NCBI GenBank assembly: GCA_964235495.1
Contig: CAXSAX010000005.1
Span: 35,935-99,934 of the forward strand
Direction of reading: 5' to 3'
Source: an uncultured Acetobacteraceae bacterium
Lineage (GTDB): Bacteria; Pseudomonadota; Alphaproteobacteria; Acetobacterales; Acetobacteraceae
DNA: 64,000 bases
The notes beneath the pieces are model-generated. The model was not told the origin of the DNA and ran no database searches. It saw nothing but the letters and a program-made list of their open reading frames with translations. Both the position numbers and the translations under genes were made by a program. Below are positions 3,957 to 60,853 of the stretch, piece after piece. The first letter of the stretch is position 1. The number at the start of each line of letters is the position of its first letter.

Positions 3957-4331
3957 TTACGGCGACTTGTCCGGAACCGGGGTGATAGCGGCAGGCGCCT
4001 GGCCCGGTTGCAGCAGGTAGATGGTGGGGCTGGCCTGCTTGGCCCTGATCTCGGCTTGCAGGGCGGCTAAGCTGGCTGTCTGTTGGGTGACCAGCACCTG
4101 CAACTGCCGAGTTTCCGTCTCCGACTCGCGGCCAAGATAGTTCGCCAAGCCAACCCCGGATCCGACCGCCAAAGCGATTGCAACGGCTGCGCTGACTCCG
4201 AACTTGAGGCTTTCCCAGCGCATGTCGCTGTTCAGCTTGGTCATGTTCAGGCGGGCATCGTCGATGTCCACGTCCAGCTTCTCCATCTCTTTGAGGTATT
4301 TGGCCTCTTCCTAGTCCTGCGTCAGCGGCAT
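3957..4331 (-). CDS. Small membrane protein (RWE + TM helix) with an in-frame TAG at codon 7; the 109-aa ORF 3957..4286 is intact; possible pseudogene
   Basis: ATG CCG CTG ACG CAG GAC TAG GAA GAG GCC AAA TAC CTC AAA GAG ATG GAG... continues in frame with the listed 109-aa ORF. GGAG lies 10 nt upstream of ATG 4331. Similar to the ORF at 59252..59449. Confidence 0.7.
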
Positions 4332-57936: not shown

Positions 57937-58452
57937 ATGTTCGATTTTGCCTGGTCCGAGATCGCCCTGATCGGCGCGGTGGCGCTCGTCCTGATCGGGC
58001 CCAAGGACATGCCGGTCGCCATCAAGGCCATCACCACGGCGATCAAGAGGGCGCGCAAGATGGCGGCGGAGTTCCAGGGCCACGTGGACGAGATGGTCCG
58101 CGAGGCCGACCTGCACGAGGTGCGCGACCAGGTGCGCGAAATCCGCTCCATGGACCTCCGCGGCGCGCTCACCCGTGCCGTGGACGGCGACGGCACGCTC
58201 CGCAAGGCCTTGCAGGACCCGATCCGTACGCCGCCCCCGGTCGTGACCACGCCGGTCGAGGCCTTGCCTGAGCACACCATCGCCGCCCCTGCCGAGGCCG
58301 GGCCGGTTGCTCCGGTGCCCAAGCCGGCCGAGGGGATCGTGGCCCGGGAAGCCGTGCCGCCCGCCTCCATCCCGCCCGCTTCCGTCGCGCCCGCCTTCGT
58401 TCCCCCGGCTGCGGCCGAGGCAGCGGCTCCGGCGCAGGCCCACGACGCCTAG
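57937..58452 (+). CDS. tatB: Twin-arginine translocase subunit B
   Basis: MFDFAWSEIALIGAVALVLIGPKDMP, with a Pro/Ala-rich tail. Confidence 0.93.
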   Translation: MFDFAWSEIALIGAVALVLIGPKDMPVAIKAITTAIKRARKMAAEFQGHVDEMVREADLHEVRDQVREIRSMDLRGALTRAVDGDGTLRKALQDPIRTPPPVVTTPVEALPEHTIAAPAEAGPVAPVPKPAEGIVAREAVPPASIPPASVAPAFVPPAAAEAAAPAQAHDA

Positions 58453-58454
58453 CC

Positions 58455-59246
58455 ATGTCCTCCGCCGCCGGGAAGCCCGAAGACACCATCAACGACACGC
58501 CTATGCCGCTCATGGCGCACCTGCTGGAGCTGCGCCGCCGGCTGATGTGGGCCGGGCTGTCGTTCTTCGTCTGCTTCGCGGTGTGCTACCATTTCTCGAC
58601 GCAGATCTACTCGTTCCTGGCGCAGCCGCTGGCCGACATCCTGCAATCCCGCTCCGGCCAGGACCGCCGGCTGATCTACACGGCGCTGTACGAGGCGTTC
58701 TTCACCTACCTGAAGGTGGCGCTGTTCGGCGGTGCGTTCCTGGCATTCCCGGTGATCGCGACGCAGCTCTACATGTTCGTGGCGCCGGGCCTGTACCGCA
58801 GCGAGAAGCGCGCCTTTCTGCCGTTCCTGATTGCGACGCCCGTGCTGTTCGTCATGGGCGCGGCGCTGGCGTATTATTTCGTGTTTCCCGTGGCCTGGCG
58901 CTTCTTTCTCTCGTTCGAGACGCCGAACGGCGCGGGCGGCCTGCCGATCGAGCTGCAAGCCAAGGTGGGCGAATACCTCGACCTGGTGATGAAGCTGATC
59001 TTCGCCTTCGGCATCGCCTTCCAGCTGCCGGTGCTGCTGACGCTGCTGGCCAAGGTCGGCATCGTGACGCAGGCCGGGCTGCGCAAGATGCGGCGTTACG
59101 CCTATGTCGGCATGTTCGTGGTCGCTGCGATCCTGACGCCGCCCGACGTGATCACCCAGTGCGGCTTGGCGCTGCCGCTGATCGCGCTCTACGAGGTCTC
59201 GATCATCGCGGCCGGGCTGGTGGCGAAGAAGCCGGTGGAGGCGTGA
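58455..59246 (+). CDS. tatC: Twin-arginine translocase subunit C
   Basis: MPLMAHLLELRRRL, FVAPGLYRSEK, FQLPV, ILTPPD. Confidence 0.96.
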   Translation: MSSAAGKPEDTINDTPMPLMAHLLELRRRLMWAGLSFFVCFAVCYHFSTQIYSFLAQPLADILQSRSGQDRRLIYTALYEAFFTYLKVALFGGAFLAFPVIATQLYMFVAPGLYRSEKRAFLPFLIATPVLFVMGAALAYYFVFPVAWRFFLSFETPNGAGGLPIELQAKVGEYLDLVMKLIFAFGIAFQLPVLLTLLAKVGIVTQAGLRKMRRYAYVGMFVVAAILTPPDVITQCGLALPLIALYEVSIIAAGLVAKKPVEA

Positions 59247-59251
59247 CGGGC

Positions 59252-59449
59252 TTAGTGCCCGATCGCGCGGAGGATGAGCGTGGCCACGCCGATGAGCGCG
59301 GCCATGACACCGGCCCCAGCACCGGCCGCAACAGCCATGGCTTTCCATGGCTCCCACCGAACTTGGGTTTCGAAGTGTCTGATCTGAATGGGCATAAGCT
59401 CCATCCTCATCTCGTGCTCTAAGAGTTCCTGGTCGGCACTCAGCGGCAT
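59252..59449 (-). CDS. Small membrane protein, 65 aa (RWE + TM helix family)
   Basis: MPLSADQELLEHEMRMELMPIQIRHFETQVRWEPWK followed by a ~25-aa hydrophobic stretch. Similar to 3957..4331. Confidence 0.7.
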   Translation of the reverse strand: MPLSADQELLEHEMRMELMPIQIRHFETQVRWEPWKAMAVAAGAGAGVMAALIGVATLILRAIGH

Positions 59450-59549
59450 GGTCTAAGATAACACATTGCCCACTAAGCTGCATTAGCGCTCGCCTTGACC
59501 AGGTGGTGCCGCCGGTTCAAACGCCTGACGCCGGTGCTGTTGCAACCCT

Positions 59550-59580
59550 GTGGATGACCGGGCCAAGCCCGGCCATGACG
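59550..59580. repeat. REP-like hairpin GTGGATGACCGGGCCAAGCCCGGCCATGACG (one arm only)
   Basis: Stem CCGGGC-CAA-GCCCGG. Resembles the GGATGGCCGGGnCAAGCCCGGCCATGACG repeat I recall from alphaproteobacterial genomes. Ends 10 bp before the serS ATG. Confidence 0.6.
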
Positions 59581-59590
59581 GTAGGGACTG

Positions 59591-60853
59591 ATGCAAGACA
59601 TCCGAGCTGTTCGCGACGATATCGATGCTTTTCGCGCGGCGATGAACCGGCGCTCAATCAGCATTGACGTTGAGGAAATAAGTCGTACTGACGCGAATCT
59701 GAGGCGAACCGTCACTGAGCTGGGCGGGTTGCAGGCTGAACGAAACGCTCATTCGAAGCTTGTCGGCGAGCAGCGCCGCAAGGGCCATGACACGCTGGCG
59801 CTTGAGGCAGGGGCAGTGGGCATCCGCGACCGGATATTGAGCTTGCAAGCCGCGGAACAGGGCTTCAGCGTGCATCTACAAAGCCTTTTAGCCAGCCTCC
59901 CCAACATCCTCGACCCCGACGTGCCGGACGGCGCCGACGAGTCCGCCAACCTCGTCGTCAAGCAGCACGGCGAGCCGGCCGCCCTCACTGCCGCCCGCCA
60001 GCACTTCGAGCTCGGCGAGGCCCTCGGCCTGATGGACTTCGCCGCCGCCGCCAAGATCGCCGGCTCCCGTTTCACCGTGCTGCGCGGCGGCCTCGCCCGC
60101 ATGGAGCGCGCCCTCGGCCAGTGGATGCTCGACCTGCACACGGCCGAGCACGGCTACGAGGAGGTCGCCGTCCCGCTGCTGGTGAACGAGGCCACGGCCT
60201 ACGGCTCCAACCAGCTGCCCAAGTTCGCCGAGGACATGTTCCAGACCAAAGACGGCCGTTGGCTCATCCCCACCGCCGAGGTGCCGCTCACCAACCTGGC
60301 CGCCGGCGAGATCATCCCCGAGGCCCGCCTGCCGCTGCGCATGGCCGCGCTCACCGACTGCTTCCGCTCGGAGGCCGGGTCGGCCGGGCGGGACACCCGG
60401 GGGATGCTGCGCCAGCACCAGTTCCGCAAGGTCGAGCTGGTCTCCATCACCCGACCGGGAGACAGCGACGCCGAGCACGAGCGCATGACGCGCTGCGCCG
60501 AGACGGTGCTGGAGCGGCTGGGCATCCCGTACCGCCGGATGCTGCTCTGCGCCGGGGACACCGGGTTCGGCGCCGCCAAGACCTTCGACCTGGAGGTCTG
60601 GCTGCCGGGGCAGGGGGCCTGGCGGGAGATCAGCTCCTGCTCCAACACCCGCGCCTTCCAGGCCCGCCGCATGAACGCGCGCTGGCGCCCGGCGGAGGGC
60701 AAGCCCGAGTTTGTCCACACCCTCAACGGCTCCGGCGTCGCGGTCGGCCGGGCGCTCATCGCGGTGATGGAAACCTGCCAGCAGCCGGACGGCTCAATCA
60801 CCGTGCCGGACGTGCTGCGCCCCTACATGGCCGGGCAGGAGCGCATCGGCTGA
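59591..60853 (+). CDS. serS: Serine--tRNA ligase
   Basis: [58 protein letters not shown]. Confidence 0.98.

Follow-up and report, generated by a model that had tools for sequence, protein, structure and literature searches.

What is encoded by the short open reading frame (ORF) that lies on the minus strand between tatC and serS in an uncultured Acetobacteraceae bacterium, and how is its presence at this place to be explained? The locus was studied in a window of 64,000 nucleotides (the whole stretch of DNA that was analysed; assembly GCA_964235495.1, contig CAXSAX010000005.1, positions 35,935 to 99,934 of the forward strand), which comes from a lichen metagenome; the relatives used for comparison are uncultured Acetobacteraceae metagenome-assembled genomes (MAGs), and the loci compared carry L numbers. 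The best overall explanation, to which a rough probability of 0.55 is given, is that of an accessory, tail-anchored membrane protein, moron-like in its behaviour, whose gene would be passive cargo of a recombination hotspot. The gene was defined as follows.

59252..59449, minus strand: coding sequence of a small membrane protein (65 aa), based on the ORF, homologues, the ratio of nonsynonymous to synonymous substitution (dN/dS), an AlphaFold2 (AF2) model and hydropathy.

The small gene and its product

The ORF comprises 65 codons (59252..59449, minus strand; translation MPLSADQELLEHEMRMELMPIQIRHFETQVRWEPWKAMAVAAGAGAGVMAALIGVATLILRAIGH, 65 aa); its GC content is 0.611 and that of its third codon positions (GC3) 0.74, the whole window being at 0.714. 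Its stop codon (59252-59254) and that of tatC (ORF end 59246) are separated by 5 nt, CGGGC. Among 5.8 billion proteins searched, 40 homologues were found, the majority of exactly 65 aa; E33-P-W-K-A-M-A39, A41, A44, G45 and A51 were invariant across their alignment. When 1.84 billion cluster representatives were searched with a profile, 124 clusters (counted at 50% identity) were obtained at E ≤ 1e-3, almost all of 55-90 aa, and the RWEPWK motif was found to hold across hosts of 42-72% GC. Eight syntenic orthologues showed zero indels and a fixed length of 65 codons, pairwise dN/dS of 0.04-0.23 (Nei-Gojobori) and synonymous sites near saturation. As the length is kept without indels at such dN/dS values and with near-saturated synonymous sites, the ORF is beyond chance; it is a genuine protein-coding gene under purifying selection.

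All that the initial annotation had described from the letters alone was recovered: the 65-aa minus-strand ORF (given there as about 62% GC), its stop 5 bp from that of tatC, and the TATCTT hexamer 5 nt before the ATG without a clear Shine-Dalgarno (SD) sequence. Its label 'RWE-TM' (TM, transmembrane) corresponds to R31-W-E-P-W-K36, near-invariant in 123 distinct family members, and its proviso that homologues or purifying selection might be lacking is answered by the 40 homologues, the 124 clusters and the dN/dS values given above.

The AF2 model, computed with the family alignment, consists of helices 5-30 and 33-62 (mean predicted local distance difference test score, pLDDT, 88.5); hydropathy gave a single TM segment at about 37-60 with a maximum of 2.06 at residues 42-60, and the prediction of TM topology that had been proposed along with the initial annotation returned one TM helix at 37-60. 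The N-terminal 36 residues have a net charge of -3; R31 and K36 are placed at the inner membrane flank, and after the TM helix only 5 residues follow, RAIGH. Next to the collar formed by RWEPWK (31-36), the 123 members have small residues at a frequency of ≥ 80% at positions 41, 43-46, 51 and 54; read in this way, the continuous small-residue TM face is typical of tight helix-helix packing. Outside collar and TM face the family is variable, with N-terminal coiled-coil insertions of 'ADTxYK'-type repeats and with C-termini that are either a basic/His tail of 3-6 residues or a Pro-rich tail of 20-80 residues (family consensus at the C-terminal end, R/H-x-x-G-H/K). The functional core consists of the juxtamembrane collar and the small-residue TM face.

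A TM segment at 37-60 of 65 residues within a small-residue-rich helix is the architecture of a C-tail anchor. The product is most likely a C-tail-anchored inner-membrane protein of N-in/C-out orientation; this orientation is favoured because the Pro-rich C-terminal tails of relatives are periplasm-type segments and because of the basic collar.

A candidate promoter element was found directly before the start codon.

59455..59463, minus strand: candidate extended -10 element TGT-TATCTT (hexamer 59455-59460, TGn 59461-59463), read from the sequence, 5 nt upstream of the ATG.

Before the start codon, this strand reads TGT-TATCTT-AGACC-ATG, with a putative leaderless start at 59449; no GGAG, GAGG or AGGA was present within the last 20 nt before the ATG. 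At orthologous loci a TAnnnT-type hexamer, often preceded by TG, stood 5-6 nt from the ATG in seven of nine cases, and an SD sequence in none of the nine; the hexamer variants (TATCTT, TATCGT, TATACT, TAACAA) have been kept despite strong divergence of the spacer. Because the -10-like element and the missing SD are both conserved among the orthologues, these data support a leaderless mRNA for the tatC-serS orthologue group. Family members in other contexts carry SD-like sequences.

The tatC-serS slot and its divergence island

The small gene is flanked by two core genes, and together with part of one of them it lies in a segment of raised divergence.

58455..59246, plus strand: tatC, convergent neighbour and left conserved anchor of the island (ORF; Pfam TatC in orthologues).
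59591..60853, plus strand: serS, seryl-tRNA synthetase, with about 100 initial codons of low GC content and high variability (ORF; Pfam Seryl_tRNA_N and tRNA-synt_2b in orthologues; composition).
59264..60000, no strand: divergence/replacement island made up of the small gene, the spacer and the beginning of serS up to about codon 100-137 (identity, synonymous divergence (pS) and GC).

Comparison of tatC-serS synteny in relatives, likewise proposed at the outset, showed the small gene in the same slot in 11 related Acetobacteraceae assemblies, always beside serS and divergent from it; this linkage was unbroken in all relatives, with any extra DNA confined to the tatC side. Alleles lacking the small gene were obtained as contigs X2 and X4 from two lichen-metagenome runs (tatC 3' end 98-99% identical); in these, 59263 is joined to 59478 or 59494 via 46-62 unrelated letters, another serS leader, and 12 nt of the small-gene 3' end are kept. 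Decay was seen among the orthologues: an in-frame stop together with a degenerate -10 element in L011, a truncation in L019, and the start codon replaced by AGG in L014 and by ATT in L017. As presence/absence alleles occur and decay is frequent, the small gene is a dispensable accessory gene.

The extra DNA on the tatC side was of several kinds. A solute-binding-protein gene (Peripla_BP_6) is inserted in L001 (5425-6660) and in L011 (5299-6537); two overlapping ORFs (59 and 99 aa; 4-bp overlap) lie between small gene and tatC in L014 (2898-3373), the pair having a type II toxin-antitoxin (TA)-like layout and no Pfam match at E ≤ 0.001; a non-coding insert of 415 bp is present in L036 (2919-3333), beginning with long palindromic GGGTGGGAT...ATCCCACC repeats.

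Among the window, L013, L012 and L014 (all six pairs), tatC and the serS core were 85-100% identical (the tatC product of the window having 99.6% aa identity to L013); in each pair identity dropped to 0.73-0.88 in the small gene and spacer, and further, to 0.28-0.65, in roughly the first 100 codons of serS, before recovering between 59884 and 60001. The corresponding pS values were 0.43-0.76 (small gene), 0.72-0.75 (serS N-terminal arm), 0.11-0.28 (tatC) and 0.19-0.24 (serS core). The tRNA-binding coiled-coil arm of SerS (59591-60000, codons 1 to about 137) showed 32-41% aa identity where tatC and the serS core were 90-100% identical at the nucleotide level; the GC content of this arm was 0.45-0.72 across relatives, with 45% in L012, and that of the remainder of serS uniformly 67-73%. 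The ratio pN/pS of the arm (pN, nonsynonymous divergence) was 0.3-0.7 with saturated pS; positive selection on the arm was rejected, and since pN/pS is below 1 at saturated pS, replacement is preferred to diversification in situ. In L034 the small-gene allele of the window is present and is as similar as the flanks, the serS arm being still mosaic.

These comparisons indicate that the N-terminal arm of SerS may have been repeatedly replaced by foreign alleles. From the divergence patterns we infer that a segment of about 700 bp (small gene, spacer and serS N-terminal arm) has been exchanged repeatedly between closely related, lichen-associated strains by homologous recombination, which fits the data best. 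The small gene would then not be autonomously mobile, and would be cargo in a hotspot flanked by core genes; crossovers within the tatC 3' end and the serS catalytic core, both conserved, would replace cargo, spacer and serS arm as a unit. An unexpected addition is what appears to be a hypervariable, horizontally shuffled N-terminal arm of the essential SerS, linked to the small gene.

Core-gene-flanked integration or replacement hotspots are known on bacterial chromosomes. The present locus is like them in its variable cargo between core genes (small gene, TA-like pair, solute-binding-protein gene, or nothing) and in its sharp divergence boundaries, with presence/absence alleles in near-identical strains; unlike them, the block reaches about 300-400 nt into the essential serS and would swap the tRNA-binding arm. 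The locus may serve as a clear case from nature in which cassettes are exchanged at such a hotspot, the exchange extending into an essential gene, and the shuffling of the SerS arm bears on the tolerance of housekeeping proteins for mosaic replacement.

Several smaller elements were recorded around the gene.

59247..59261, no strand: GC hairpin CGGGC-TTAGT-GCCCG without T-run, across the gap between the convergent stops (read from the sequence).
59450..59590, no strand: spacer of 141 bp between the divergent small gene and serS (85-144 bp in orthologous loci).
59552..59581, plus strand: GC-rich palindrome of 30 nt, GGATGACCGGGCCAAGCCCGGCCATGACGG, in the serS leader, 10 nt upstream of the serS start (inverted repeat).

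The stretch of the inter-stop hairpin persists in the alleles that lack the small gene. At 59000-59800 no intrinsic terminator was predicted; as the stops are moreover only 5 nt apart, the convergent transcripts of tatC and the small gene probably overlap. The predicted fold of the spacer was not unusual (z = -0.64), and an Rfam scan of 58800-60200 gave nothing real. The palindrome of the serS leader is present as a single copy in the window and matches other contigs of the same assemblies, with depth spikes; it looks like a dispersed repeat of the repetitive extragenic palindromic (REP) kind.

Family members in other contexts

Chromosomal members occupy a number of other slots: the ccmE-ccmF gap (L016), the tgt-queF gap (L021, L023), the place behind pdxJ (L024, whose MAG also contains L012) and the gap that separates a SerB-like HAD gene from a KamA-like radical-SAM gene (L038). 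On a 36-kb phage contig (L006) with ERF, methylase, integrase, GH108 endolysin and SLT tail protein, the homologue stands directly after the tyrosine integrase, on the opposite strand to the GH108 lysis cassette and convergent with it. A further member was found on a contig with capsid, portal and HNH genes (L008), three IMG/VR contigs (L027-L029), one of them enterobacterial, carry a member each, and a metagenome scan contributed 4 further loci. Because members sit in many unrelated intergenic slots as well as on contigs of phages or other mobile genetic elements (MGEs), the family has clearly been acquired repeatedly and is common to temperate phages/MGEs and proteobacterial chromosomes.

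In L006 (3905-5213) integrase and homologue are separated by an AT-rich spacer of 205 bp, a candidate attP region, and the homologue has a 4-bp overlap with the end of the lysis cassette. In L025 (4465-5233) a tandem array was observed, with one intact family copy accompanied by one or two that are frameshifted or degenerate; in L020 (5001-5300) a long-tailed member is directly followed by a WEPWKAMAV... fragment. In view of these arrays and fragments, genes of the family tend to accumulate in the same places.

The window itself contains one paralogue.

3957..4331, minus strand: paralogue called 'copy 1', long-tailed subtype, with an RND pump gene on either side (translation; hidden Markov model (HMM) E = 0.004).

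Copy 1 is 31% identical to the small gene and is orthologously fixed between the two RND genes. In the allele of the window, codon 7 is TAG (MPLTQD, then the stop, then EE...); relatives have intact orthologues of 129-141 aa (MPLTQDQEE...) in the same mdtB/mdtC-type slot, on the same strand and at tight spacing. Since the intact gene is kept there in relatives, the allele of the window is read as truncated or as a pseudogene. An HMM scan of the 64-kb window gave no third family copy.

The initial annotation had taken the small gene to be acquired independently of copy 1, in preference to a tandem duplication, and had favoured a mobile or repeatedly acquired cassette. The first claim stands insofar as copy 1 is a distant paralogue (31%) and the small gene no tandem duplicate of it; a recent or independent insertion is not borne out, the slot being shared by 11 assemblies. 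Of the second claim, repeated acquisition agrees with the many slots and the phage/MGE contigs of the family, and mobility is not supported at this locus, where neither cassette ends nor a mobility gene were found. No flanking sequence was common to the 13 family contexts compared; the sole inverted repeat flanking the small gene is of 8 bp, occurs at chance frequency and is not found in the orthologues; no terminal inverted repeat, attC, att or target duplication accompanies the small gene at the locus, and no transposase or integrase was present at this locus or at the 11 syntenic ones. Mobility genes near family members elsewhere are the integrase of L006 and an IS6-family transposase about 400 bp from the member in L018. 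As judged from these comparisons, the present copy is ancestral to a clade and would move only within the recombining chromosomal block.

Functional readings and rival explanations

According to the preferred explanation, a cytoplasmic acidic amphipathic helix would be joined through the interfacial RWEPWK collar to an Ala/Gly-rich TM helix, the small-residue face of which (37/41/44-45/51/54) would pack on other helices, most likely those of further copies of the same protein. The gene would use its own putative extended -10 promoter, probably giving a leaderless mRNA, divergent from serS; the occurrence of the family in both temperate phages/MGEs and chromosomes would lead to a behaviour like that of a phage 'moron'. 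As in phage morons and lysogenic-conversion proteins, a small single-pass membrane protein is encoded by a solitary gene with its own (putative) promoter, the L006 copy lies by an integrase and outside the structural and lysis operons, and isolated chromosomal copies exist too; unlike in these, most copies found here are chromosomal and syntenic, and no sequence or fold similarity was found.

Several results weigh against this explanation. A strict sigma-70 consensus scan of 59000-59800 gave no site. For the topology, charge is indecisive, with +1 on each flank, and the acidic N-terminal tail could in principle be translocated by YidC. A tblastn search with three members against 50,697 GenBank phages and 72,556 PLSDB plasmids gave no match, and the link to phages therefore rests on a handful of metagenomic contigs. 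Family, profile and structure searches revealed no homology to any protein of known function; for this reason any physiological role is a guess.

The searches were made as follows: Pfam, NCBIfam, PHROGs and PADLOC (query, all 40 aligned members and longer relatives) gave no significant match; a profile search of PDB yielded nothing meaningful; comparison of the AF2 model with BFVD gave no match. The best PHROG was phrog_658 (unknown function; best E = 6.9e-4, sub-threshold). Matches to GajB/UvrD were discarded as spurious, being located on an AGAGAG stretch. The family is undescribed so far; its general kind, that of small, tail-anchored, MGE-associated membrane proteins, is already known.

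Superinfection exclusion is exemplified by HK97 gp15 and T4 Imm. A phage-type moron function at the membrane, whether superinfection exclusion or some other phage-related effect, is a tentative guess for the small protein, possible rather than probable. A much bolder version, which is improbable, would see in the RWEPWK-TM proteins a new class of phage-derived single-gene membrane effectors that block phage DNA entry or trigger membrane collapse, spread as promoter-carrying nano-cargo between core genes and drag the SerS arm along within one species-level population. If the role were phage exclusion or that of an addiction-type toxin, a minimal single-gene module would be added to the MGE-borne membrane effectors; independently of the role, small membrane proteins are systematically missed in annotation, and here a family of about 124 clusters with an unusually conserved juxtamembrane motif and TM face was obtained.

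A membrane-perturbing toxin or holin-like pore former, acting in an addiction or persistence module and placed under antisense control, for example by tatABC read-through, is a guess that we hold to be unlikely. The conserved TM helix rich in Ala/Gly zippers would suit it, as would the presence of members on phages/MGEs and, next to a TA-like pair, in hotspots, the frequency of inactivating mutations, and the convergent stops 5 nt apart without predicted terminator, which make antisense overlap likely. Type I toxins carried by prophages are known (PMC12648545), and with toxins such as Hok, TisB, Ldr and Fst the small protein shares one TM helix, MGE/hotspot association, duplicated or decaying copies and possible antisense overlap. 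Type I toxins are, however, usually of < 60 aa, with one TM helix and few residues outside it (PMC12648545), and a typical type I toxin was rejected on account of the 65 aa and the conserved hydrophilic N-terminal part of 36 residues, which contrasts with the short extensions of those toxins and is modelled as a helix; furthermore, neither an antitoxin RNA nor a partner gene recurs from context to context, and strong purifying selection over 11 genomes would be unusual for a bare toxin. Holin PHROG matches were weak (E = 0.013-0.065 in long-tailed members, the best value, 0.013, in one relative), and XhlA (PF10779) was matched at E = 0.32 in one relative. Assignment as a holin was rejected, the L006 gene being on the opposite strand and outside the lysis cassette and a significant holin family match being absent; an endolysin was not found near the chromosomal copies.

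Less likely than a toxin is a stress protein of the DUF883 type (ElaB/YqjD/YgaM), in which a glycine-zipper anchor would hold a short cytoplasmic helix to the membrane, and to this helix ribosomes or some other partner from the cytoplasm would be tethered during stationary phase. DUF883_C (PF19029) was the top Pfam match for 38 of the 40 members (best E = 7.7e-4), all below the gathering score; for the query, 12.9 bits were obtained against a gathering score of 27. Alignment by hhalign with E. coli K-12 ElaB/YqjD/YgaM (from NC_000913.3) gave a probability of 2.5% over 15 columns, pairing 'TQVRWEPWKAMAVAA' with 'DYVHEKPWQGIGVGA' of ElaB. The C-tail-anchor architecture is the same: as in the DUF883 proteins, a single C-terminal Gly/Ala-rich TM helix follows a hydrophilic helical N-terminal part facing the cytoplasm, and the helix has at its cytoplasmic end an acidic residue followed by Pro-Trp (EPW in the small protein, E[KN]PW in ElaB/YqjD). 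The tail anchors of DUF883 proteins have been described as Gly-rich TM helices, and a positively charged C-terminal patch ending in di-arginine is a trait of the group (PMC5525287). Compared with that group, the small protein is shorter by about 35 residues and has no terminal di-arginine (RAIGH in place of the ...LLARR / ...LLSRR of ElaB and YqjD); the DUF883 N-terminal domain (PF05957) was found in 0 of 40 members and 0 of 10 longer relatives at E ≤ 1 or 0.5. Membership in DUF883 was rejected on the sub-threshold score, the 2.5% hhalign probability and the lack of both N-terminal domain and di-arginine. Besides, the small protein is found on phages and as hotspot cargo, a position from which DUF883 genes are not known. 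It resembles a C-tail-anchored Gly/Ala-zipper protein, but is not a demonstrable DUF883 member.

A role as accessory subunit, or as regulator, of an inner-membrane complex encoded next to the gene, comparable to that of AcrZ for AcrB, has a low probability. Three contexts do flank membrane complexes (TatC; the MdtB/MdtC-type RND pump for copy 1; CcmE/CcmF in L016), the member of the RND slot is on the same strand and tightly spaced, and pumps are known to be modulated by small TM proteins such as AcrZ (PMC12648545). Other slots, however, flank cytosolic enzymes (TGT/QueF, PdxJ, SerB-like/KamA-like); the small gene is antisense to tatC, is parted from it by the inserts of L001, L011, L014 and L036 and is linked to serS instead; a near-identical TM core stands beside unrelated neighbours, and near-identical strains carry alleles without the gene.

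Of similarly low probability is a relic left by a temperate phage, or by an integrative element, which targeted the serS 5' end and brought its own serS N-terminal segment, the small gene being the att-proximal moron that stayed when the prophage disappeared. The L006 homologue, directly after the integrase and by an AT-rich spacer, would agree with such an origin, as would the foreign-looking, variable GC content of the first 300 nt or so of serS and the linkage of small-gene and serS-arm alleles in L034. Against it, a serS N-terminal fragment was found on no viral contig and serS similarity in no phage locus; the window contains no integrase, att repeat or duplicated piece of serS; the arm is mosaic even where the small gene matches the flanks in conservation, and homologous recombination between the conserved anchors gives the same pattern more simply.

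A spurious ORF, that is, a chance open frame in GC-rich DNA, where long false ORFs are many, or the antisense of a regulatory region, could be thought of for a short ORF without family annotation, and is effectively refuted by the conservation pattern: frame and length are held without indels at the dN/dS and synonymous saturation given above, the motif is invariant over the 124 clusters, and the predicted structure is a confident one.

Upstream of the locus, at the tatB 3' end (58300-58399), which encodes the Pro/Ala-rich C-terminal tail of TatB, the identity to the closest relative dips to 0.78 from 0.94-1.00 around it; this dip is probably ordinary low-complexity variation.

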